NCBI GenBank assembly: GCA_963575745.1 | Contig: CAUYUJ010000159.1 | Span: forward strand, 372,001 to 436,000 | Direction of reading: 5' to 3' | DNA from: Prorocentrum cordatum | Lineage: Eukaryota | DNA: 64,000 nt | Shown: positions 5,817-46,900 of the stretch, piece by piece | How positions within the stretch are numbered: the first letter of the stretch is position 1 | How the letters are laid out: each line of letters starts with the position of its first letter | Translations under genes and position numbers: made by a program | Notes under the pieces: generated by a model | Told to the model about the DNA's origin: nothing | What the model saw: only the letters and a program-made list of their open reading frames with translations | Database searches by the model: none

Positions 5817-5858
5817 TCCGTCGCCATTTTGGATAAAGTCCGTAGCCTTTCGCTCAGG
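5817..5858 (+). other. Two tandem dinoflagellate spliced-leader relics
   Basis: TCCGTCGCCATTTTGGATAAAG (5817-5838, 19/22 to DinoSL) is directly followed by the more decayed TCCGTAGCCTTTCGCTCAGG (5839-5858). Confidence 0.75.
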
Positions 5859-5989
5859 TCTTGACATTTCGGCGTGGCAGAGGAGCGGTCCCCGACTGCT
5901 CGTGTCTCGAACGTGCCAGCCCTGGCGCGAAACCCCTTTCTTTGTGCACGCGTCCGGGTATTGTAAGCGGGGTGCCCGCCTGCCTCCAG

Positions 5990-13670: not shown

Positions 13671-13712
13671 CTAGCCAGCTTGAGCAACAGGGTTGCGTCC
13701 GCTGGTGGACGG

Positions 13713-13734
13713 CTTGGGCCAAGATGGTTACGGC
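13713..13734 (-). other. Spliced-leader relic
   Basis: Minus strand reads GCCGTAACCATCTTGGCCCAAG: 19/22 to DinoSL, ungapped, all three differences transitions. Confidence 0.8.
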
Positions 13735-17974: not shown

Positions 17975-18074
17975 NNNNNNNNNNNNNNNNNNNNNNNNNN
18001 NNNNNNNNNNNNNNNNNNNNNNNNNNNNNNNNNNNNNNNNNNNNNNNNNNNNNNNNNNNNNNNNNNNNNNNNNN
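17975..18074. other. Assembly gap (100 N) between (GGA)n and (CCT)n tracts
   Basis: Run of N. Confidence 0.99.
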
Positions 18075-32089: not shown

Positions 32090-35000
32090 GGCGGGCCAAG
32101 AGTGCCGCAAAAAACCCCAAACGGTCCAAGAGGGCCCCAGAACGCCGAACGATCGATGCCCAAAGAGGTCTCCAAGAGGGCTCCCAAGAGGGCCCTCAGA
32201 GGTCCAAACCATTGATTTTCCTAAGGTGTTTGAAGAATGTTGCGTTCTGGTCTTTTCGGCTTCGCGATGCTCCCAGAAAACCCTGGAGGCCCTCAAGACC
32301 GCACCAAGACCGCCCCAAGACGGCTCCAAAAGGGCTCCAAAACGGCCCAAGAGGGCCCCAAGACGGCCATGGAGGCGCCCAGAGCGGCCCAAGAGGGCCC
32401 CAAGACGGCCCCCAAACGGGCCCAAAAGAGAGAACGCGAACCGAAAATCCGAGCCCTCCCCAAGAAGCCCCCAGGAGGCCCCGAGAGGCGCCCAGGAGGC
32501 CCCAAGAGGCCCCAAAGAGCCTCCCAAGAGGCACCCAAAAGGCCCGACAGAGGCCCCAAGAGCCGAGCCCCCCAAAAACCATCAGGAGGACTGCCTCCAA
32601 GAAGCCCACGACAGGCCCCCCACGAAATCTGGACGAACATCCAATAGGCTTCACACCCACAACCCAGGCACAGTGGCGGGATGGGCATAAAGCCACTAGA
32701 TATCCCAGCAAAATGGCCGACGCCCCCTGTCGATTCATCGCAGGGGTGCATGGCGTGCTAGATTATTACGGTTGTGGTGTTGGCTCTTGTTCCAAAAGAA
32801 CTCCCCCTGGAGCTTCGGCGCGTCCCGCCGGCTGCCTGCCTCGTCGGCTTTTTCGCTCAAGATGGCCAAAGATGGCCTCCAAGATGCCTCCAAGACGGCC
32901 AAGATGGTCTCCAAGACGGCTAAGATGGCCTCAACACGCCTCCAAGACTGCCCAAGATGCACCCAAGACGGCCTAAGATAGCCTCAAGATGGCCCAAAAT
33001 AGCCTAAGAGGCCCCCAGGAGGCCTCCAAGACGGCCCAAGACGGCCCAAGAGGCCCCTAAGAGGTCCTCCAGGAGGGCCCGAAGAGGCCAAAATCATTGA
33101 TTTCCCTTAAGTTGTTGAAGGATGTTGGCATTTGCTTCTTCTCGGCATTCCGACGGCTCACGACGGCACAAGAGGCCCCCAAGATCGCCCCAAGACGGCC
33201 CCAAGAGGGCCCCAAGAGGCCTCCAAGACGCACAATATGGCCTCTAAGACGGCCCTGGAGCATTCCAAGAGGGCCCCAAGTCGGCCCAGAAAGGCCCCCC
33301 AAACGGCTTCCGACGGGCCAGGAGCCAACCAAGATGGCCGAAGTTGTCTCGCAGCTGGCCCAAGACGGCCCAAGCCAAGAGGGCCTCCAGGAAGGCCAGA
33401 AAAGGCCAAACACACTGATTGTCTGTTGAAGGATTTTGACATTTGCTTCGTTTCGGCCATCCGACGGCCCGCGATACGGCCCGAGAGCCCCCAAAGATCG
33501 ATCGCAGATCGCCCAAGAGGCCTCCAAGATGGCCCCAGAACGGCCCAAGCGCCCCCCAAGACGGCCCCAAGAGGCCCCCAAGACGGCCCAGGAGGCGCTT
33601 AAGACGCCCAAGATGGCCTCCAAGACGACCCTGGAGCATACCAAAAGGGCCCCACGTCGGCTCAGAGAGGCCCCCCAAACGGCTTCCGACTGCGTCGGAC
33701 GGGCCAGGGGCCCACCCAGACGGCCGAAGCTGGCACTAAGATGGCCCAAGACGGCCCAAGAGGCCTCCAAGAGGGCCTCCAGGAAGGCCCGAAAAGGCCT
33801 GATGTCCCATGAGTGTTCGAAGGGTTGTGGCATTTGCTCTGTGTCGGCCTTCCGACGGCCCGAGACGGCCCAAATGCCCCCAAAGATCGCCGAAGGGGCC
33901 CAAAACGGCCCCAGGGGGCCCCCAAGACGGCCCAAGAGACCTCCAAAACGCTCAAGATGACCTCCAAAACGGCCCAACAGCCCATCAGACGTCGGCCCGA
34001 AAGGGCCAAAATGGCCTCCAGGCGGCCAAGATGACAGTCAAAATGCCTACGTGTTCCCCGAAGGCTTTCCAAACCGATTCAGGGAACACATGGTCCGAGA
34101 GCTTGGCAGGTCTGGCCTCAACGTTCGGCCACATTGGCGCTTCCACAAAGGCAAGGGGCGGCGGTGATTCGCCGTACGAGTCCTCGATATCCCACCTAGA
34201 TGGCCGAAATTGGCTCGAAGCTGGCCCAAGACGGCTCAAGAGGCCTCCAAGAGGGCCTCCAGGAAGTCCAGAAAAGGCAAAACACACTGATTGTCCCTAG
34301 GCTTTTGAAGGATTTTGACATTTGCTTCGTTTCGGCCATCCGACGGCCCGCGATACGGCCCAAGAGCCCCCAAAGATCGCCCAAAGATCGCCCAAGCGGC
34401 CTCCAAGGTGGCCCCAGAACGGCCCAAGCGCCCCCCAAGACGGCCCCAAGAGGCCCCCAAGACGGCCCAGGAGGCGCTTAAGACGCCCAAGATGGCCTCC
34501 AAGACGACCCTGGAGCATACCAAAAGGGCCCCACGTCGGCTCAGAGAGGCCCCCCAAACGGCTTCCGACTGCGTCGGACGGGCCAGGGGCCCACCCAGAC
34601 GGCCGAAGCTGGCACTAAGATGGCCCAAGACGGCCCAAGAGGCCTCCAAGAGGGCCTCCAGGAAGGCCCGAAAAGGCCTGATGTCCCATGAGTGTTCGAA
34701 GGGTTGTGGCATTTGCTCTGTGTCGGCCTTCCGACGGCCCGAGACGGCCCAAATGCCCCCAAAGATCGCCGAAGGCCCCAAAACGGCCCCAGGGGGCCCC
34801 CAAGACGGCCCAAGAGACCTCCAAGACGCTCAAGATGACCTCCAAAACGGCCCAATAGCCCATCAGACGTCGGCCCGAAAGGGCCAAAATGGCCTCCAGG
34901 CGGCCAAGATGGCAGTCAAAATGCCTACGTGTTCCCCGAAGGCTTTCCAAACCGATTCAGGGAACACATGGTCCGAGAGCTTGGCAGGTCTGGCCTCAAC

Positions 35001-35932
35001 GTTCGGCCACATTGGCGCTTCCACAAAGGCAAGGGGCGGCGGTGATTCGCCGTATGAGTCCTCGATATCCCACCTAGATAACCGAAATTGGCTCGAAGCT
35101 GGCCCAAGACGGCCCAAGAGGCCTCCAAGAGGGCCTCCAGGAAGTCCAGAAAAGGCAAAACACACTGATTGTCCCTAGGCTTTTGAAGGATTTTGACATT
35201 TGCTTCGTTTCGGCCATCCGACGGCCCGCGATACGGCCCAAGAGCCCCCAAAGATCGATCAAAGATCGCCCAAGCGGCCTCCAAGATGGCCCCAGAACGG
35301 CCCAAGCGCCCCCCAAGACGGCCCCAAGAGGCCCCAAGACGGCCCAGGAGGCGCTTAAGACGCCCAAGATGGCCTCCAAGACGGCCCTGGAGCATACCAA
35401 AAGGGCCCCACGTCGGCTCAGAGAGGCCCCCCAAACGGCTTCCGACTGCGCCGGACGGGCCAGGGGCCCACCCAGACGGCCGAAGCTGGCACTAAGATGG
35501 CCCAAGACGGCCCAAGAGGCCTCCAAGAGGGCCTCCAGGAAGGCCCGAAAAGGCCTGATGTCCCATGAGTGTTCGAAGGGTTGTGGCATTTGCTCTGTGT
35601 CGGCCTTCCGACGGCCCGAGACGGCCCAAATGCCCCCAAAGATCGCCGAAGGGGCCCAAAACGGCCCCAGGGGGCCCCCAAGACGGCCCAAGAGACCTCC
35701 AAGACGCTCAAGATGACCTCCAAAACGGCCCAATAGCCCATCAGACGTCGGCCCGAAAGGGCCAAAATGGCCTCCAGGCGGCCAAGATGACAGTCAAAAT
35801 GCCTACGTGTTCCCCGAAGGCTTTCCAAACCGATTCAGGGAACACATGGTCCGCGAGCTTGGCAGGTCTGGCCTCAACGTTCGGCCACATTGGCGCTTCC
35901 ACAAAGGCAGGGGACGGCGGTGATTCGCCGTA
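32090..35932. repeat. CCAAGA(C/G/T)GG-rich satellite containing an ~878-bp unit repeated three times in tandem (~33333-35932)
   Basis: Identical landmarks recur at 33436/34315/35193 (spacing 879 and 878). Related degenerate satellite at ~45240-46440 and ~59680-59930. Confidence 0.9.
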
Positions 35933-36269
35933 GGCGTCTTCAATCTGTTTCTTTCCTTCGCAACAATTAAGATCTACCCCCCGGGGTTATCGGTACATCT
36001 TTTCGTATTGCAAATTGCATGTGATTCTGCCCCATCGCTCATCCGAAATATGAGCCCAGGCCGGTATCGTCCCCCCCTCATCCTCTGCAGAAAACCATGC
36101 GCGCGCACTCGTTTAGCAAAAACCATTTGTTTGCAATAGTGCATCGCAGAAGAACGAACAAGACGAGGTGCGCACGCCGCACGCGCGCGTCGTCGCGCGC
36201 GCATGCCGGAATGTTTCAGATCCGCCGATCTGGCGTGTGAGTTTCTGATTGCGTGGGCTTGAGGTTGCT

Positions 36270-36580
36270 CGAGCTTCGCTCTGGCGAGGGGGTGGGGGCT
36301 GACGCGGGCTGACATGGGCTAACGTGGGCTGACGCGTTTCGGTGCTCGGGGGGGGGAGCGGGCTTCGCTCTGGCGAGGGGGGGGGGGGGGGGGACGACGC
36401 GGGCTGACGTGGGCTGACGTGAGCTGACGCGTTTCGGTGTTGGGGGGTGCTCGGGAGGGAAAAAAGGGGGAGTGCTCGAGGCGACGGGGGGGGGTCTGAC
36501 GCGGGCTGACGTGGGCTGACGCGTTTCGGTGCTCGGGGGGAGGGGGTGTTCGGGGAAAGGAGAGGGGGGCGGGGCTCTGC
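36270..36580. repeat. G-rich minisatellite (GCTGACGTGGGCTGACGCGTTTCGGTGCTCGGGG); resumes at 43914-44230
   Basis: The same units lie on both sides of the Copia element. Confidence 0.85.
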
Positions 36581-36581
36581 G

Positions 36582-37191
36582 TGGAAGAACAGGCTCGGCA
36601 GAGCCGAAATTCGTTACATGTTCGTTGCCATGTTCTGCGGTGCGGGAGGCATAGCCTAGCACGGCATAGAACAAGAGTCCCTCTTTCTGGTGTGCAATAG
36701 ACCGGTACGGCCAACCAAACAATCTGTTCCCAGAGAGCTGTTCGGGAACATAATAATTTAGTCGTTTAGGGCACTGCGGCCAGTGTCATCGTGCAGGCGC
36801 GGAGGCGTGTAGCAATGCCACCTCCGCGCAGGCACGACCAGAGGTGTGTAGCCATGACACCTCTGGTGCTGGGGGTGCGTAGCAATGCCGCCCCCAGCCA
36901 TAGGACAGTTTCTGTCCGGAACTGTTTCGGCTCAAGGCCCATTCGGTGCGATGGACAAGAAGAAAAGAAGTGACTCCCCTGCCACCCAACAGCTCCGACA
37001 ATTCAAACGAATCCTAGTATCAACTAATACTTTACTTTGTGAGCGTCTTGGGATAGAGCCCAAGGAGGTCCTCAAGGAGCCCCTCCCCACCAGCAGGGAG
37101 GACACGATACGTCTGCTGTCCGACATCGCTGACGGCAGATTGGTGATCCCAGAGCCTCAGTAGAACCAGCAGTGATGGAGCCCATCGGGGA
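36582..37191 (+). repeat. 5' terminal direct repeat (LTR-like, ~610 bp)
   Basis: Aligns with 43299-43913 with about 19 differences by eye, including one 6-nt indel. Begins TG. Confidence 0.9.
36951..37163 (+). CDS. 70-aa ORF of unknown function inside the terminal repeat (72-aa copy at 43667-43885)
   Basis: MDKKKRSDSPATQQLRQFKRILVSTNTLLCERLGIEPKEVL...GRLVIPEPQ. Open in both copies; ATG is 14 nt after an SL-like 22-mer. Confidence 0.45.
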   Translation: MDKKKRSDSPATQQLRQFKRILVSTNTLLCERLGIEPKEVLKEPLPTSREDTIRLLSDIADGRLVIPEPQ

Positions 37192-39625
37192 CACGTACGT
37201 GGGGCCACTCGAGAGCAGAGCCCTGCAAAGGATTATGAGCCCAAGCGCTCCCACGATCCACGGCACGCAGCTGGGGGCGCAAGTGCGCCAGTGTGCCGCC
37301 TGCTTCGACTGCGTCGTGGGGCCCGCCGTGCAGTGCGACAACTGCGGCGGGATTGTGCACGCCCACTGCATGCAGGTGTTCGGCCGGAGCCCGGTTTGCG
37401 TGACCTGCATCGCGGAGCGGGACGCTTTCGTGGCCGCGAGGCGCTCCACCATGATCCAGCACGGCGCGCAGCAGTTCGGCCGCGCCCTGGCTTCTGGTGG
37501 GCAGCTCGCCGGCTTGGTCGTCGGTGCCACCGCTTTCAGGCTTCGGGCCGGAGTCATTCGACTTGCCAGCGGAGAGCTGGCCGGCGCGAGGCAGACCATG
37601 GGCGGAGTGGCTGAGATCCCTGGGCCTGCCCGCCCACGCGCGCTGCCTGCACTGCAGCCCGCGGATGCCCTCCTGGAGGGCAGCAGCTCGGCATCGACAT
37701 GGCCGACAGGATGGCAGACATGGAAGCGGAGATGGTCAGGCTCCGAGCGGAGAACGCGCAATACCGCAAGGAGTTCGGACTTCACCAATCCGGAGGCGGC
37801 GGCTACGCGACTCCAGGCGCCAGCAGCGCCGCGGGTCGGCCAGCCCCATCGACTCCGCATACCACGAGTGCGGCTGCAGCCGCTGAGGTCGACCAGGAGG
37901 GCGCCGATGGTGCAGCAGCCCTCCTCGCCGCGGCCCTCAGCGATCCAGGTGTTGCCCAAGGGCCAGCCGACGGCATCGAGGTTGCTGCGGCGGTCGCGGC
38001 AGCGGCCGAGGCGCAGCACAGTGCAGGAGGAGCATCAGGAGGAGGTGCAGGAAGAGCGAGCGGGGAGCAGGCGGGAGAGGTGAGCGTCGCCGACCCTCAC
38101 CGAGCCACGGCGCCACCCGCGCCGAGCGCCGCCGTTGGCGGCGCAGGCCTCGCAGCTGAGGACGTCCTCCCGCCTGGACTTGGCGCTGCGCCCTGGCCGT
38201 GGTCATCGGCGAGTGCGACGGCTGCTGGTGACTTCGCTGGCGGTGCGAGCTCCGCTGATGCAGCAGGTCTTGCTGCTATCCTGAGCCGCTTGAAGGGCGA
38301 CGAGGTGCCAAATCTTTCTTGGACAGGAGGCAGCAAGGCATCGAAGTATGAGGAGTGGTTGCAGACCAACACCCTCTACTACGCGTCGGTGCACCCGCAG
38401 GTCGAGGCCTGGTGGTGCAACCTGCGCGCTGCGGTGGACGCTATCGTACGACGCGTACCTGCACGTGGACCCGCTGCAGCGGCCGTGCATCTGTCCCCAG
38501 ACGTCGTGGGCAGAGGTCGGGGCACAGAGGCAGGTGGAGTACAAGTATCGGCCCTACCTGCTCCTGGCCATGCCCGAGTCCATCAAGACCCAGGCACTCG
38601 CCACCAGGCAGTTGAGCTGCAGCGAGCTCGTGTTCGCCGTGTGCGTCGAGGCGGGCCCTGGCACCCTCCGGGATAGAGCTGCCACGTTGAAGGCAGTGGA
38701 GCGACGTGGCAATCCGGCCGCCCCAGCCCGGGGGGAGGTGTACGTCGAACTGCAGCGGTGGAAGTTTGACCTCACCAGGCTGCAACGCCTTGGTGCTGTG
38801 GCCCCAGACCCTACCATCCAGCTCACCACGCTGCGCACGCTGGTGAGCAAGATGGCGGAGGCCGACGAGGACTTCAAGTTCCGGATGAGCAACTGGCAGC
38901 TCGTTCGAGGCCTCAGTGGCGCTGCGAGCTGCAGCCAAAGCCAGATCGACGAGTTCTGGCGCTTCCTGGCCGGCGAGGCCCGTGAGGTCTCCACCGACGG
39001 GGCGAGGCAGCAGCAGCAGCAGCATCCGCAGCAGACTCAGCAGCTTGGCAAGCAGGTGCAAGCGAAGGTCGCGTCGCTGGAGGCGCAGATTGCCTTCCTA
39101 GAAGGAGCGGGCAAGGGCGGCGGTCAGCCGTTGAAGCCAGGTCCCACAGGCAAGGCTGGCGGACAGACCAAAGGCAAGAACAAGGGCAAGGACTCGGAGC
39201 AGTCGAAGTTCTGCCAGTCCTTCGAGTCCGACGCTGGCTGCAAGCAGGGCGGCACATGCACGTGGCCGCACAGCAAGCTGCAAGCGAGCGAGGGGAAGTG
39301 CTTCAACTGCGGAAGCAAGGAGCACGCCAAGGACGCCTGCGCGCGCCCAAAGCGCGAGGCGGCGGCCAAGGCAGCAGAGGTTGCCATGAAGCCAGGAGGT
39401 GGTTCTGCCTCGGCTTCGGACCCAGGCGGCGCTGGTGCGCAGACACAGCCTGCGGCGCAGGCGGGTCAGCTCGGGGCCGTGGTGGCTGCGACGATCAAGG
39501 CTCTGGCAGGAGAGGGATCGCCTGGTGCCGCGCTTGCCGTCGCGCCCGCGGACGCGGACCCTGGATGGCTGGACAGATGGGCGACGTCGACGGCTCGGGC
39601 GGCAAGCCCCCGCGCGCAGCGGTAG
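37175..39625 (+). pseudogene. gag: Copia gag region (PHD finger, gag core, CCCH finger, CCHC knuckle), split by frameshifts
   Basis: C4HC3 finger at 37292-37408; CQSFESDAGCKQGGTCTWPH at 39212-39271; CFNCGSKEHAKDAC at 39299-39340. Spread over ORFs 37172-38083, 37699-38676 and 38348-39625. Confidence 0.8.
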
Positions 39626-42600
39626 CCGTGGCACGCCTGGTGGAAGTTGGCGGCAAGCGGATGTTGCTCGCCGACACGGGCGCCACGCACGATCTGCGCT
39701 CGATCCCTGTGGGAGGTGACCCTGGGGTCGGGACGCGGCGCGTCGATCTGCAGACGGCGACGGGCAGCATGGAGGCCAGGATGGGCGAGGACGACGTGGT
39801 GTACGTTGAGTCCGATACCCCTCTCCAGCCGCTCTTCCCGCTGGGGATCTACATCGAGGAGTGCGGGCTCGGCCTCGAGTGGACGCCTGAGGCTTGCATG
39901 TTGCGGCTGCCAGACCACAGAAGTTTGGAGTTGCAGTGCGTGGAGGGCAGCATCTACATCGCGGATGGCGATGCGGAGGTGCTGCGGCAGTTTCGCGCTG
40001 CTATGCGTTTGGCGCGCGGTCGTGCCATGGAGACCCAGGCGATCAGGGCCGCAGTTTTGCTGACGGAGCTGGCGAAGCATCGATCAGAAGGGCATCCCAC
40101 CTTTATGGCGGAGTGCCGCGAGTGCAAGCTCGCCGCAGGGCGCATGCGCCCGCACTATCGCCTGGACCCTTCTAACCGGCCAGGTGGGCAGCTTTCGGTT
40201 GACCTGAGCGGCCCCCATCCGCCTGGACGGTGGCCGAGTTCATTGCAGGAGGACGCGCCGAGGAGGGCGCAGTACTTCCTGCTCTGCGCCTACCAAGTGC
40301 TGACGCAGGCGGAGGTGGAGCAGCAGGGCCGCAACGTCGCGGACGCGGGGGCGGCCGCAGCGGCTGGCGACGCCGCGACGCCTGCTCAGGTCCGGCGCCA
40401 GGAGCGCTGGGGACAGCGGCACCGCCGCCGAGGACGACGTCGGCGCGGTGAGCCGAAGGTCTGGTACTTCACCGTCCCGCTGGAGCGGAAGACGGCCGAG
40501 GAGTGCATCAGGGCGCCTGATGCCGTTGTGGCGGCGGTCGGGCTCGAGTTCCAGGGGCAGGCGGTCTTTCGCATCCACGCGGATCGTGCCCCAGAGCTCT
40601 CAGGACCGCGCGTGCGAGACCACTTCGCCACGAAGCAGATCGTGGTCACCAGGACGCTGGGCGTCGAGCCCAACAATAATCCTCGCGCGGAGCGTGGCAT
40701 CGGCGTCATCAAGGGCCGCGCGAGGGCAATGCTGATGTCCTTCCCTGCCGCCGATCAGCAGCATCTCTGGCCAGCTGCCGTGCAGCATGCGAGCTGGTGC
40801 CAGCGGCGCTTGGCCATGGGGCGGGCGAATGACTGCCCAGCATTTGGGGACCTCGTCACGGCCAGGATCAAGGACCCTCCCAAGGCGGGCTTCGCAGCGC
40901 GAGGCAAAGACATGACCTTCCTGGGCAAGGAGGACCATACCTCTGGCAGCTATTTGGTGGGCCGGAGGGTGCGGGGCGCCAGGAAGGGCGAGGAGTGGAG
41001 TTTCGAGGTGTCGAGCTCCTACGTGGTCGACGCTTCGGCCGCGCTCCAGGATCCCGCGCTGTGCGACGCCAGAGGCAGTGCCGACGGCGGAGGTCGCCCT
41101 GTTGCCGCCGCGGCGCCAGGAGGAGGCCAGGAGGAGGACGAGGCAGAGGGCAGCAATCAGCCAGGAGATCAGGAGGAGGCAGTGGACGCCAGGAGGAGGA
41201 CAGGACGCCTGGATGAGGCAGCGGAGCCAGGAGAAGGGGAAGGTGACGGCATCTTCGAGGCGTTGTCCGATGAGCGGATCTTCTCGTGCCCAGCGTGCCG
41301 GGGCCGCCTTCGACCCCACACTCGGGACGAACGATGCCGCCTCGGAGCGCAGGCGGCGGCGGCGGTGCTGGCGTCGAGGAGCCAGGAGGAGGCGAATGCG
41401 GAGCAGGAGGAGAAGGAGTCCGGGCTCCCAGTCTTCCAGCAAGTGTTTAAGGAGAGTGGTTTTGCTCCCGCGACGGTTCGCGAGGTCGACCAGAGCTTCG
41501 GAGCTGAGCGGGAGGCCTGGCGACAGGCCCTGGGCGGTGAGCTCGAGTCCCTCCGAAGGAAGGATGCCTTCGAGGATCTATGTGCCGCGGAGGTGGCGTC
41601 GACGCCAGCCCGCAAGATCCTGCCTATGAAGATGGTGCTCGGCACGAAGCCTCGAAGCGAGGCCGATGGCGGCGGCCGCAAGCATAAGGCCCGCGGCTGC
41701 ATCTGTGGCAACTTCCAGCCGCAGGTCCCTGGCGAGGAGACGTTCAGCGCGTCGGTGGACATTGCCAGCTTGCGACTCGTCTTGGCCGTCGCCGCAGCGA
41801 ACCAGTGGGCATGCTCTGCCCTGGACGTGGCCACGGCGTTCTTGAACGTGGAGCTGCCGCCAGAGACTGGGGAGGTCCTCGTCCGACCTCCAGCCATCCT
41901 CCCCCGCTTCGGGTTGGTGCAGGCGGGGGCCCTGTGGCGCGTGAAGCAGGCCATGTATGGTCTGCGCGTCGCGCCGCGCGCGTGGTGGGAGAAACGTGAC
42001 CGCACCCTGCGCGAGAAGGCCCTCATGGTCGAGGGTGAGCGCTGCCGGCTTCGGCAGTCTCACAGGTTGACCAATGTTTGTGGGCGATCGTGAACAAGCA
42101 GGACCGCGTGCTGGGCTACGTGTGCGTCTACGTCGACGATTTCCTGATGGTAGGGGAAACCGCTGCCATCAGAGCGGTATCCGACATGTTGGAGTCGACG
42201 TGGACCTGGTCAGTGCAGTCGTCGATCTCTCCTGCGCACCCTGGCAGCATCAAATACTTGTCTCTTTCGATTCGGGCACGCGCTGACGGGTACTAGATCC
42301 ACCAGCAGGAATACTTGGAGGAGTTGCTGGCCAAGTGGGGCCTCGATCGTGGCAATGGCGTGGGCACGATCGTAATCGACCCCCTGCCTGAGCAGCCAGC
42401 CGACGCGGACGAGCAGGATGCAGTCAACTTAGGGCAGGTCCGTCTCGCACAGAGGATGTCCGGCGGACTCCTGTGGCTTTCGGGCCGCACGCGCCCCGAC
42501 GTGGCGTTCGCAGTATCTCGGCTATCTTCGGCCGCCGCACTTTACCCAGAGTGGGCCCTCAAGCTGGGAAAGAAGATCTTGAGGTACCTGGCTGGGACTC

Positions 42601-43123
42601 GGCACTACGGTTTGGCCTATCAGTGCAGTGGGGACTTGGCATTGCACGTCTATGCCGACGCATCCTTCGAGCCATCCACGGCCCAGACGGGCATAGCCGT
42701 CTACTTGGGACAGCGTCTAGTGGACTGGAGGTCGTGCAAACAACCGCAGCCAGCGAGATCCACAGCAGAGGCGGAGGTGGAGGGACTTGCCTGGAAGGCG
42801 TGGTTCTGGAAGGCGTTGAAGCCGTGCTCAGCAGCATGTTCATCAAGGCGGAGAGCCCGGAGATGTTTGGAGACAGTCAGGCCTCGCTCCACATTTTTAG
42901 GGGCCAGGGGTCGTGGCGGACGAGGTGGTTGGCGAACCGTGCTGCAGCTCTGAGGGCCAGGATTGAGGCTGGGCTGCTCGTTTTGGGGCACGTGGCGTCG
43001 GCTGAGCAGAAGGCCGACGGATTGACCAAGACGTTCTCGGTGCCCATGATGGGGCAAGTTCGCCGTGCATTGAGCCTGATTGACCACCACCTCCCGCAAG
43101 TTTCTCCCGCGCAAGTTTCTTGA
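39620..43123 (+). pseudogene. pol: Copia pol (protease-integrase-RT-RNase H)
   Basis: Motifs as listed for the element. Frameshifts near 42078 and ~42795, and an in-frame TAG at 42294-42296. Confidence 0.92.
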
Positions 43124-43298
43124 GCATCGACCTGATGCTTGGCATTCAAATGAGCACGCGTGGGTGCCACCAGGAACTTTTTGGGGATTTTCCTTTTGAA
43201 CTGTTTGGGGTCCCTGCTTCACCCGTTCCTCCAAGGCCAGAGGCTTCGCTCCCTTGCGGCGGTCGATTTGACACCGCCGCCGCGGGAAAGGAGAAGCG

Positions 43299-43913
43299 TG
43301 AAGAACAGGCTCGGCAGAGCCGAAATTCGTTACATTTTCGTTGCCATGTTCTGCGGTGCGGGAGGCATAGCCTGGCACGGCATAAAACAAGAGTCCCTCT
43401 TTCTGGTGTGCAATAGACCGGTACGGCCAGCCAAACAATATGTTCCCAGAGAGCTGTCCGGGAACATAATAATTTAGTCGTTTAGGGCACTGCGGCCAGT
43501 GTCATCGTGCAGGCGCGGAGGCGTGTAGCAATGCCACCTCCGCGCAGGCACGACCAGAGGTGTGTAGCCATGCCACCTCTGGTGCTGGGGGTGCGTAGCA
43601 ATGCCGCCCCCAGCCATAGGACAGTTTCTGTCCGGAACTGTTTCGGCTCAAGGCCCGTTCGGTGCGATGGGCAAGAAGAAAGGAAATGACTCCCACAAGC
43701 CTGCCACCCAACAGCTCCGACAATTCAAACGAATCCTAGTATCAACTAATACTTTACTGTGTGAGCGTCTTGGGATAGAGCCCAAGGAGGTCCTCGAGGA
43801 GCCCCTCCCCATCAGCAGGGAGGACACGATACGTCTGCTGTCCGACATCGCCGACGGCAGATTGGTGATCCCAGAGCCACAGTAGAACCAGCAGTGATGA
43901 AGCCCATCGGGGA
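43299..43913 (+). repeat. 3' terminal direct repeat (LTR-like)
   Basis: Copy of 36582-37191, preceded by a polypurine tract. Confidence 0.9.
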
Positions 43914-46900
43914 GGGGGGGGGGGGCTTCGCTCTGGCGAGGGGAGGGGGGACGCGTTTCGGTGCTCGGGGGGGGGGAGGTGCTGGGGGTGGGTGGGGGGG
44001 AGGGGCTTCGGTCTGGCGAGGGGGGGGAGGGGTCGACGCGGGCTGACGTGGGCTGACGTGAGCTGACGCGTTTCGGTGCTTGGGGAGGGGGGGCGCTCGG
44101 GAGGGGAAGGGGGAGTGCTCGGGGGGAGGGGGGGGGGAAGGAGGGGAGGGGGGGCTGACGCGGGCTGACGTGGGCTGACGCGTTTCGGCGCTCGGGGGAA
44201 AGGGGTGCCCGGGGGCGGGGGAGGGGTTCTGGAGGGACAGCAGCGGGATCGCCCCGGATCGGCGGCAGTGGCCGGAGGCCACTACAATACGTAAAGTTCA
44301 GTCTCGCAGCCAGGGCTTTCAAAGAAAACTGCGAACGCGCTTTTGCGAATCCTTAAGAAACCATTGGCTTTTCAACATGCCATAATATGCTACCGAGCGG
44401 GCCTCTCGCGCGCGCATGTCGCAATCGCTATAGACCCCTTGCCGACGCGAAAACATCGTCATCGTTATCGGCGGGCGTGGTCGACATCGGCGCTGTCATC
44501 TGCCTTGCCGTCGTCCTCGCCACCATCGCCACTTTCATCGCTACTCTCATATACCGTTGTCGGCGTCGCCATGGTAGCGCGCCCGCCCAAGTCACCGACT
44601 TGCACTGAAGTGCCCGCTAGGGGAGTGCCCTGCGGTCAGCGCCACCGCGGCCGCGTCGGCCACGCCAAACTAGCTGGCCGCTGTGCGCGCGAGCATGCGC
44701 GGGCTAGCGCGGCCGCAGGGATGCGCCAGCCAAAGCCAAGCACTCACCACAATCGCCGCCGAATGGGTTTTGCAAACCAAGTTGCGGGCGTCGTCGTTGT
44801 CGTCGACGCCGCCGTCGTCGTCGACGCCGTCATCGTGGTCGTCGTCGTCGCCGTCGTCGTCCTTGTCGCCGTCACCGCTCCCCCGTCCCCTTCCGCGGGC
44901 CCTCCTCGTCAAACGTCCCAGCCAAAGAGAATCCGAGCAACGTCGCAATCGAGTCGAAGGGAAGCCGATTCCCCGCGGGGGGGGGGGGGGCGGTCGCGGG
45001 AGGGCAAGGGGGGGGTCCCAGGAAGGGGGCAGGGGGGATGTCGTGGGGGTTGCGACCCTCCCCCCGTGGGGAAACCACCCTCCCTGAGGGAAGCTGTCCC
45101 CTTCGATTCCTTGTCTCCCGGATGCCTCGGGCCCCCCTGCAGAGTCGGCGGCACCGGCCACAAGGCCTTCACAAGCATTGACGTTCATTATGTTCTTCCT
45201 TTGTTTTTATCGTTCTCGCGTTTTCGGGTTCCCGACGCTCCAAGATGGCCCCAGAGGCTCCAAAGACCGCCACAAAACGGCCCGAGAGGCCCCCAAGAGG
45301 GCCCCTGGACGGTCCAAGAGGGCCCCCAAACGGCCCCAGATGCGCCCATGATCGCCCAAGAGGGCCCCAAGAGGGGCCCAAGAGCGGGAACACGAACCAC
45401 CAATTCGAGTCTTCCACCCCCAGAGGCTCCCAGAGGCTCCCAAGAGAGCCAGGAGGCCCCCTGGAGGCCCCTTGGAGGCCCAAACAGAAGCCCCGAGAGG
45501 CCCCCAAACGGCACCCAAGAGGCCACGAACGCGCAGGCAAATGCCTGCGGTGGCACAATATGGGCTGGCGAAACGAGCAAAACGATTAAATCCGCCGACC
45601 CTGTCGGCGTGTGCGAGCGGTTTGTCTGTTCGAGTCGTCGTCTCCGTCAGTCGTCGTCTGCGTCGTCCCCCTTGCCTGCACCCTCCTCAAGCCAGTCAGC
45701 GAGAGAAAAACCTCGCAATGTCGCAATCGAATCGAAGGGAAGCCTCTTTCCTTTGATCCCTCCCCCGTCGGGGGCGGGAGAGGGTCCCGGGGGAGGGTCC
45801 CAGGGGGGGGTGTCAGATACGCAACCCCCCTCTGGGGGTCCCGGGGCTGCAAAGAATACCGAAACAAGCCAAGAGTGCCCCAAGAGGACCCCGAGACGGT
45901 CCAAGAGGACCCCCAATCGCCAAACGATCTGTCCAAAACGCCGTCACGCTCCCAGACTGCCCAGGAGACCTCCAAGACGCCCCAAAAGGCCTCCTGGAGG
46001 GCCCCAAGAGGCACAAATCATTGATGATCCTTATGTTTTTGACAAAGTTTGGCGTTCTCGTTTTTTCCGCTTCCCGCCGCTCCCAGATGGCCGAAGAGGC
46101 CCTCGAGGTCGCCCTAACACGGCCCAAGGGGCTTCCAAGAGCACCCCAAAACATCCCAAGAGAACCCCAAGACAGCCCAAACGCCTCCAAGACGGCCCAG
46201 GAGGCCCCAAGACGAGCGTGCCTTGACGGGGAACCCGAACGGATGTTTCGAGCCCTCGGCCCCGAGAAGCTTCCAGGAGTTTCCCAAGATGCCCCAACAA
46301 GCCCACAAGAGGCCCCAAGGACACCCGAAAAGGTCCCCACTAGGCCCCCAAGAGGCTTCCAATAGACTCCAAAGTTCCCCCCTCGGAGGCCCCCGAGAGC
46401 CTTCCCAAGAGACCCCAAGAAGCATCCCTGAGGACTCGGGCCCACGTCCGCGTCGTCGTCGTCGCCGCCGCCACCGCCGCCGTCGTCGTCGACGTCTCCC
46501 TTCAGGGTCGGCGGCACCGGCCGTAAGGCCTTCGCCATAAATACACACAAACCCCATGATTCCCAATCTTTTTCAATATGTTCTGGATGTTTGTTTCCCC
46601 CCCCCACTTCCCACATGTGTCTGTGCAAGATCCCTCCTGAATGGTCCCGGTTATGACCTATCTCTTGGCCGCCACGGGCCCTCTGTCCGTGGCACTCTTC
46701 GGGCCGGGTCGATCTGAGGTTAGAGCAACGCGCTCCACTACTCGCAAAGTACCCACTCGCAAATGGCCTGGCTCCGCCGCGAGGGATCAGCGATCCACTG
46801 CATCGCAGGCAAGCATTTGTGGTCCAGACGTTTGCAAGCAAACACTCTGCGAATAGTGGGACGCGCCCGGTGAGTGGTGGCCCCAGGAAGCGAGGCCCGG

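Follow-up and report, generated by a model that had tools for sequence, protein, structure and literature searches.

Three adjacent bulged hairpins with a common apex in the long terminal repeats of a dinoflagellate Ty1/copia element: a candidate sense-strand RNA module

Introduction

In the packaging signal of gammaretroviruses, as represented by Moloney murine leukemia virus (MoMLV), the paired stem-loops SL-C and SL-D carry conserved GACG tetraloops. In plant Copia elements, the unique 3′ (U3) region of the long terminal repeat (LTR) contains enhancer repeats such as the BII boxes of Tnt1 and the 13-bp motif of Tto1. To our knowledge, cis-acting RNA signals have been worked out in detail in very few Copia-type elements, none of them from a dinoflagellate. 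Here, we describe a tandem array of three bulged hairpins that is present in both LTRs of a Ty1/copia element, located in a 64,000-nucleotide stretch of the genome of Prorocentrum cordatum (assembly GCA_963575745.1, contig CAUYUJ010000159.1, positions 372,001 to 436,000 of the forward strand), and we discuss its possible role as an RNA module. This whole stretch is hereafter called the window; coordinates refer to it, and features lie on the + strand unless stated otherwise.

The position of the array has to be considered together with spliced-leader (SL) trans-splicing. The dinoflagellate spliced leader (DinoSL) is given as DCCGUAGCCAUUUUGGCUCAAG in the relevant passage of PMC6050394, and the presence of relict leaders in genomic DNA is explained, in the sections of PMC7245778 and PMC5585692 that deal with them, by SL-capped RNA having been copied back into DNA. 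In the relicts described in the latter section (PMC5585692), the 3′ part of the leader persists and the sequence before its internal AG has been lost.

Architecture of the array

The array is located at positions 36789–36898 in the 5′ LTR and again at 43505–43614 in the 3′ LTR, and the two copies differ at a single base (36856 A versus 43572 C). A first-pass annotation of the window, made from the sequence alone, had described three abutting hairpins here, flanked by further hairpins. The sequence is as described, and the minimum free energy (MFE) fold of region 36720–36940 agrees with it, containing the three hairpins (H1, H2 and H3), a hairpin at 36725–36750 and another within 36903–36925. 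The upstream hairpin (TGTTCCC/GGGAACA, 36725–36750) abuts the AT-rich sequence ATAATAATTTAG (36750–36761), and for the small downstream hairpin (GGACAG-UUU-CUGUCC, 36903–36917) a competing alternative pairing, ACAGUUUC/GGAACUGU, is available.

H1 (36789–36837, 49 nt) consists of an outer 6-bp stem (TCGTGC/GCACGA), a 2×2 AG/AG internal loop and a 9-bp stem, which is followed by a C/A mismatch, a G-C pair, a bulged U and the apex GUA-GCAA-UGC; its inner unit (36797–36829) has the apex G-U(bulge)-GUA-GCAA-UGC-C. H2 (36838–36866, 29 nt) has a 9-bp stem (CCAGAGGUG/CACCUCUGG), a bulged U and GUA-GCCA-UGC, of which the last triplet is retained in the 3′ LTR copy (43554–43582) and reads UGA in the 5′ LTR copy, where the apex is opened. 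H3 (36868–36898, 31 nt) has a 10-bp stem (GCUGGGGGUG/CGCCCCCAGC) that includes one U.G pair, a bulged C and GUA-GCAA-UGC. When folded alone, the hairpins reach −34.4 kcal/mol (H1), −16.9 and −18.2 kcal/mol (H2 of the 5′ and 3′ LTR, respectively) and −23.3 kcal/mol (H3).

The three units therefore have in common a 13-nt apex, G-Y(bulge)-GUA-GCMA-UGC-C, which is made up of a closing G-C pair, a bulged pyrimidine (U, U and C in H1, H2 and H3), a 3-bp helix of G-C, U.G and A-U pairs, with the U.G pair found in all three units, and the loop GCAA, GCCA or GCAA, respectively. The shared apex noted in the first-pass annotation is thus present in every unit and is longer than had been stated, including as it does the closing pair and the bulge; its designation as a GNRA tetraloop holds for two of the three loops only, as GCCA, found in H2 of both LTRs, is not a GNRA sequence.

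Non-randomness, covariation and strand bias

The array is clearly non-random. Region 36720–36940 has a fold energy of −113.6 kcal/mol, as compared with a mean of −79.3 kcal/mol (standard deviation 4.6) for 200 dinucleotide shuffles, none of which was as stable (z = −7.42). The sequence GTAGCMATGM occurs six times in the window, always on the + strand and always inside one of the six units, against a chance expectation of 0.25, and six occurrences were reached by none of 100 shuffles. When the six units were used to build a covariance model, no seventh unit was detected in the window: the six score 42.6–50.7 bits (H1, 48.8; H2, 42.6 or 45.9 in the two LTR copies; H3, 50.7), and the best unrelated match scores 19.2 bits. 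No other spot with three abutting hairpins was found in a list of perfect hairpins from the window (stems of at least 8 bp), whose 225 rows are mostly artefacts of a run of 100 N that marks an assembly gap (17975–18074) and of an (AT)n run.

The MAFFT alignment of the units is in register with the structure, and covariation was counted on the three paralogous units, which give four distinct rows. Eight of the 14 stem pairs are invariant, four have changed on both sides (C-G/G-C, C-G/U-A and, twice, A-U/G-C), one has changed on a single side (U-A/U.G, plus the C/A mismatch in H1) and one is broken in the 5′ LTR copy of H2 only. Pairing is preserved in 96.1% of 51 cells and falls to 32–54% when the partners are slid by 1–3 columns, and the covariation score was equalled by 4 of 500 shuffles. 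The stems thus differ and stay paired, as had been claimed from inspection.

The two strands are not equivalent in the array as a whole. The + strand folds at −77.1 and −78.4 kcal/mol, the latter value being that of the 3′ LTR copy, and the − strand at −71.3 kcal/mol; the + strand is better by 6–7 kcal/mol because the U.G pairs of the apex turn into C/A mismatches on the − strand. The lower stems of H1–H3 are equally stable on both strands, as would be expected if the array acted as DNA, that is, as repeated promoter or enhancer sites in U3, upstream of the transcription or SL-addition site, that would be recognized either as palindromes in double-stranded form or, once extruded, as hairpins; single-strand-binding cold-shock-domain factors, which predominate among the transcription factors of dinoflagellates, could be such readers. 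U3 repeats of other Copia elements occupy the corresponding position, and the array falls within the 5′ two-thirds of the LTR, ahead of a relict SL (described below) that marks a former mature 5′ end. In addition, cold-shock-domain proteins are named as candidate transcription factors in the pertinent part of a review of dinoflagellate genomics (PMC11453091). A dimeric factor, however, should hold its half-sites constant, whereas in this array it is the arms that vary and the asymmetric centre that does not, and the conserved U.G pair and bulge make sense on one strand only. We regard a DNA-level element as rather unlikely.

A relict spliced leader downstream of the array

A relict DinoSL, CCGGAACTGTTTCGGCTCAAG, is located at 36916–36936, with the same sequence at 43632–43652 in the 3′ LTR. 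It matches the DinoSL at 16 of 21 positions and the 3′ 12-mer at 11 of 12, has a semiglobal score of 11, and lies on the sense strand, 18 nt past H3 and 15 nt before the AUG of a small open reading frame (ORF). At both positions, high identity, sense orientation and a location upstream of an ORF, the attributes by which a relict DinoSL is recognized, are found together. Five matches of at least 16/21 occur in the window against 0.13 expected (30 shuffles), and the 3′ 12-mer is matched at 11/12 three times against 0.23 expected, a number reached by none of 100 shuffles. Two further relicts, each matching at 18/21 (chance expectation 0.00), are present at 5818 (+) and 13713–13733 (−). They belong to tandem relict DinoSLs (5818–5859, +; 13680–13733, −), each comprising the 18/21 unit followed by a second, decayed unit, which mark SL-tagged retroposed genes. 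The window is recognizable as dinoflagellate DNA because of these two 18/21 relicts together with relatives of the element's pol product in P. cordatum.

Because relict leaders arise from SL-capped RNA that was copied into DNA, an RNA of the element would once have begun, after trans-splicing, at approximately position 36937. The array is upstream of this putative mature 5′ end, and it is therefore probably part of U3 or of an outron rather than of a mature 5′ leader. It would reach the genomic RNA via the 3′ LTR or in a transcript that had not been trans-spliced. A primary transcript starting upstream, for example after the AT-rich stretch 36750–36761, for which a promoter role may be conjectured, would include it as well. 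The first-pass annotation had named a location outside the element's transcript as grounds for abandoning an RNA role, and the relict SL suggests that this is in part the case, the mature 5′ end lying downstream of the array; the accompanying suggestion of a translation signal is weakened by the same observation.

The AT-rich stretch also bears on a second explanation, in which H1–H3 are 5′-terminal hairpins of the repeat (R) region, comparable to the trans-activation response (TAR) hairpins of human immunodeficiency virus (HIV). Transcription would start approximately 30 nt past 36750–36761, the array would be located at the 5′ end of the genomic RNA and, via the 3′ LTR, at its 3′ end, and its role would be in the control of transcription or in first-strand transfer. 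The AT-rich ATAATAATTTAG ends 28 nt before H1, tandem hairpins with a bulge and a loop recall HIV-2 TAR, and the region comprising R and the unique 5′ (U5) portion must be long because the first internal ORF begins within the LTR. A structure of −77 kcal/mol at the cap would, on the other hand, block scanning, and the downstream relict SL implies that at least one reverse-transcribed RNA began past the array. Moreover, TATA boxes are not known from dinoflagellate promoters, a TTT(G) motif being discussed instead in the corresponding passage of PMC6050394. Taken together, these points make a TAR-like role rather improbable.

The apexes themselves resemble the head of the leader. The H2 apex, GTAGCCAT, is identical to DinoSL bases 4–11 (8/8), and the H1 and H3 apexes match at 7/8, that of H3 together with the preceding C; by our estimate, the chance for a 13-mer to have an 8-mer in common with the 21-nt SL, both strands considered, is approximately 0.003, which is suggestive in view of the nearby relict 18 nt downstream. 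What the apex has in common with the SL is the head, the opposite of what the described relicts retain, and its derivation from the SL is treated as a lead only, on balance doubtful. Whole hairpin units were rejected as relict DinoSLs: H3 has a semiglobal score of 5, a value that 279 end positions in the window reach, and the best ungapped unit match to the DinoSL, again that of H3, is 13/21 by hand count. Also rejected were positions 36898–36915 as a second relict (13/21 with a gap by hand count, and not prominent in the semiglobal scan) and an origin of the hairpins by self-priming of minus-strand strong-stop DNA, in which the 3′ arms should correspond to the 3′ half of the SL and do not.

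The resemblance to the SL head is the starting point of a third explanation, namely that the array is a functionless by-product: a palindromic unit, perhaps seeded by the SL head from an SL-capped RNA, would have been tandemly duplicated, and its arms would have been kept complementary by hairpin-templated repair or simply by recency. The clear relict SL 18 nt downstream is consistent with this origin, as is the presence of three units only, in one decayed element. However, whole units are not SL-like, and four double compensatory changes without a broken stem pair (the pair lost in the 5′ LTR copy of H2 belongs to the apex) are not expected of neutral drift. The relicts reported in the consulted section of PMC5585692, furthermore, keep the part of the SL opposite to that found in the apex. 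Such an origin is accordingly considered unlikely, though it deserves to be taken seriously.

The host element

The 5′ LTR (36582–37191) starts with TGGAAGAAC and ends with CCCATCGGGGA, and it forms a direct repeat with the 3′ LTR (43299–43913; repeat families D12/D13). The LTRs, of 610 and 615 nt, are on the same strand, flank a gag-pol region and are 96.3% identical over 614 nt, with 17 substitutions and 2 indels. A polypurine tract-like run, GGGAAAGGAGAAG, is found at 43284–43296, just before the 3′ LTR, and a partial copia-type reverse transcriptase domain (Pfam RVT_2; E 7.6e-15, with a score of 55.6 bits where the cut-off is 31.6) is encoded at 41611–42021. The element is thus a Ty1/copia LTR retrotransposon, in agreement with the initial placement of the array in a Copia terminal repeat.

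The fingers that had been put forward as possible readers of the hairpins are also present: translation of 39209–39340 in a gag-like ORF shows a CCCH finger (C-x8-C-x5-C-x3-H) followed by a CCHC knuckle, for which the Pfam zf-CCHC match is weak (E 0.21). The closest relatives of the pol product are P. cordatum proteins in five of six matches (best E 6.7e-269, 69% identity), and three of these six relatives are named ‘C3H1-type domain-containing’ in UniRef, which suggests that a CCCH finger immediately preceding the CCHC knuckle is characteristic of the family. The first internal ORF (37175–38083), whose ATG is 17 nt before the LTR end, contains a Cys/His cluster at approximately 37292–37411 that is C4HC3-like (PHD/RING-like) and unusual ahead of a Copia gag; Pfam gave weak C1_1 (E 0.15) and RING (E 0.45) matches to this ORF.

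The gag-pol frame is broken into at least five frames, and no integrase (rve) match was obtained at E up to 1 in eight stop-to-stop frames of the element; both features are taken as decay of the examined copy, because pol relatives of 1138–1702 aa exist. The LTR has TG at its start and GGGGA rather than CA at its end, and no primer-binding site (PBS) was identified beside the 5′ LTR. The element flanks show no 5-bp target duplication, and both consist of the same G-rich satellite (36299–36567 and 43918–44226; family D10, with GCTGACG repeats and CGCGTTTCGGTGCTCGGGG). The depth of this satellite is very high in all four sequencing runs compared. A tandem repeat of approximately 879 bp, in three copies that are 95–100% identical, occupies 33423–35951, just upstream of the satellite and the element.

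A small ORF (ORF0) lies wholly within the 5′ LTR (36951–37163, 70 aa) and is also present in the 3′ LTR (43667–43885, 72 aa). A 92-aa form of it starts at the AUG at 36885 in the H3 apex. Two relatives were found among 5.8 billion proteins: P0004 (109 aa, 72% identity) and P0005 (63 aa, 78% identity), the latter of which begins with MPPPAIGQ, corresponding to the AUG of the H3 apex and then the 3′ arm of that hairpin. The public proteome containing P0005 is presumably transcriptome-derived; if so, a relative has this portion of the array in its RNA. P0005 is labelled Pyramimonas sp., a green alga, by its source, at odds with the dinoflagellate evidence; contamination of the underlying data set is possible. 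The most conserved block of ORF0, KPATQQLRQFKRI(L/V)VSTNTLLC, overlaps the second AT-rich stretch of the LTR and could reflect constraint either on the protein or on a cis-element. Six nucleotides (His-Lys) that are present in the 3′ LTR copy and in both relatives are lacking from the 5′ LTR ORF0 (36975–36980 versus 43691–43702), an in-frame deletion that postdates insertion. No Pfam family matched at E up to 10 (four proteins), no useful Atlas neighbour was found (the best score, 0.75, being below use), and the AlphaFold model consists of two helices at low confidence (pLDDT 61.4); the suggestion that the small ORF product binds the hairpins thus finds no support here.

Searches for related sequences

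An Rfam search of 36300–44300 on both strands, which had been proposed together with the original description, gave no family match at E up to 1; a mir-885 match at 38808–38861 (21.7 bits against a gathering score of 66) was dismissed as chance. That the hairpins are precursors of LTR-derived small RNAs is very improbable: their stability at lengths of 29–49 nt is the sole point in favour, whereas no Rfam family matched, the conserved part is the loop and not an arm, and stems of 8–11 bp are too short for Dicer-type precursors.

Pattern searches were also performed on contig collections. The three-apex pattern was found at 3 loci in viral contigs, all of them unrelated tandem or coding repeats, and the two-apex pattern was found at 32 loci in metagenome contigs, all unrelated tandem repeats with no blastn similarity to the element, and at 12 unrelated prokaryotic loci in genome contigs. 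When the covariance model was applied to 46 fetched loci, the best score was 25 bits, for a repeat between bacterial-looking genes without a DinoSL (L021). Pol peptide patterns and two back-translated ORF0 patterns returned nothing in viral or genome contigs. At the protein level, the − frame ORF 36786–37001 yielded no candidate, and P0006, a candidate relative of the + frame ORF 36791–36970 (E 2e-6), is a 465-aa translation of an unrelated tandem repeat and was discarded as a chance match.

In two other organisms, contigs with approximately 85–93% identity extend over the LTR together with the array; one example (run X1, record 8) spans 43455–43799 with 25 differences and 2 gaps. Small shares of the stretch (0.05–0.11) are present in three sequencing runs, and no RNA run is listed. 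A single contig of run X2, from a related organism and with a short side of 32 nt, joins 36832 (the H1 end) to 43665 (the base before the ORF0 AUG); it may come from a form of the LTR that lacks H2, H3 and the relict leader, and it was not used as evidence.

A possible role of the array

The interpretation that we favour, to which we assign somewhat less than an even chance, is that the array is a selected, cis-acting module of the sense-strand RNA of this dinoflagellate Ty1/copia element, in which three paralogous bulged hairpins would offer three copies of one 13-nt apex to a protein that marks the full-length RNA, the lower stems having drifted and yet stayed paired. The SL-capped mature mRNA would probably lack the array at its 5′ end, whereas the U3 part of the 3′ LTR would carry it within the 3′ untranslated region of the full-length RNA, as would the outron of primary transcripts starting upstream. 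Most probably, such an array would serve as a multivalent binding platform, its protein partner labelling full-length RNA as a substrate for packaging or reverse transcription; Gag of the element itself, which bears CCCH and CCHC fingers, is the obvious candidate. What the sequence itself demonstrates is the fold and its departure from chance, the compensation seen among paralogous units, the preference of the apex for the sense strand, the placement in an LTR, the relict SL and the fingers of Gag. We infer that function resides in the RNA and not in the DNA, that the module has a protein partner and what its identity is, and where transcription begins and ends. If the transcript does start upstream, the position of the array upstream of the SL would fit a trait of packaging signals, namely presence in full-length RNA and absence from processed mRNA.

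Several observations weigh against this interpretation. The relict SL appears to place the array outside the mature 5′ leader, the usual location of retroviral packaging signals, so that a packaging-type role is possible only via the 3′ LTR copy or a transcript that was not trans-spliced. The covariation comes from three paralogues of one element and is real but thin evidence; the number of pairs changed on both sides, taken as a measure by itself, was equalled by 19 of 500 shuffles. The single difference between the LTR copies of the 110-nt array, against approximately three expected from 17 substitutions in approximately 610 nt, is not significant (Poisson P approximately 0.19). The equal stability of the lower stems on both strands may leave room for a DNA-level palindrome, and the GCCA loop of H2 means that no particular tetraloop fold is common to the three hairpins. 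Finally, the element copy is decayed, an apex pair having been lost in the 5′ copy of H2.

A more specific variant of the favoured RNA module is that the hairpins are an adaptation to obligatory SL trans-splicing, with apexes derived from or mimicking the DinoSL head and an outron module that would sort SL-capped mRNA from hairpin-bearing genomic RNA for packaging by Gag, as a trans-splicing counterpart of the retroviral psi signal behind the splice donor. We consider this variant distinctly unlikely. If it were true, the relict DinoSL in the LTR would be direct evidence of a Copia reverse transcriptase copying SL-capped RNA, and elements of this class would thereby be linked with the as yet unexplained large-scale generation of SL-tagged dinoflagellate retrogenes. 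The presence of a relict DinoSL within an LTR in any case bears on a question left open in the literature, namely which retroelement is behind dinoflagellate retrogenes. Should the module prove to be a genuine platform for protein binding, it would provide a handle on LTR retrotransposon replication in cells whose mRNAs bear an SL, including how template is distinguished from mRNA and how R-region homology survives trans-splicing; if it is a neutral scar, the array is an ordinary LTR repeat.

Comparison with known systems

With the U3 enhancer repeats of plant Copia elements, the Tnt1 BII boxes and the Tto1 motif, the array has in common that short units are repeated in the LTR upstream of the RNA start; the plant repeats, however, are direct and of constant sequence, whereas the units of the array are hairpins with covarying arms. 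We know of no hairpin triplet with a common apex in Ty1 or Tto1. The parallel with yeast Ty1, whose gag start and structured RNA are located within or beside the LTR, and with the R region of tobacco Tto1 (PMC3061985) consists of the Copia type, the start of an ORF in the 5′ LTR and the location of the strand-transfer redundancy in the LTR's central portion.

The relict leader in the LTR resembles the relict DinoSLs of retrogenes, as presented in the pertinent passages of PMC6050394, PMC5585692 and PMC7245778, in its 16/21 identity, the preserved 3′ TTTxGGCTCAAG, its sense orientation and its position 15 nt before an ORF. It differs in its location, which is internal to an LTR and not upstream of a host retrogene, and the hairpin apexes match the SL head at 7–8 bases only. 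In the portions of the literature on these topics that were covered, we found neither a relict DinoSL within an LTR nor hairpins of this kind in Copia elements of dinoflagellates described.

Among hairpins of reverse-transcribing elements, SL-C and SL-D of MoMLV are similar to the array in that adjacent hairpins with identical conserved loops and variable stems make up a cis element in an element with RNA-binding Gag zinc fingers, a binding that in the present case would be by analogy. Unlike the array, which is inside the LTR and upstream of the relict SL, the MoMLV hairpins are in the 5′ leader downstream of the PBS; the array has three units rather than two and a GCMA loop with a bulged pyrimidine and a U.G pair, and there is no sequence similarity. 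TAR of HIV-1 and HIV-2 likewise has a pyrimidine bulge under a short upper helix, a conserved loop and an LTR location, with a tandem duplication in HIV-2. TAR, however, begins at +1, whereas the relict SL argues for a position of the array upstream of the mature 5′ end, and the transactivator that acts on TAR has no candidate counterpart here, the small LTR ORF belonging to no recognizable family. By analogy with what is known of these systems, the array thus appears to resemble both the gammaretroviral GACG pair and HIV-2 TAR, while being a member of neither family.

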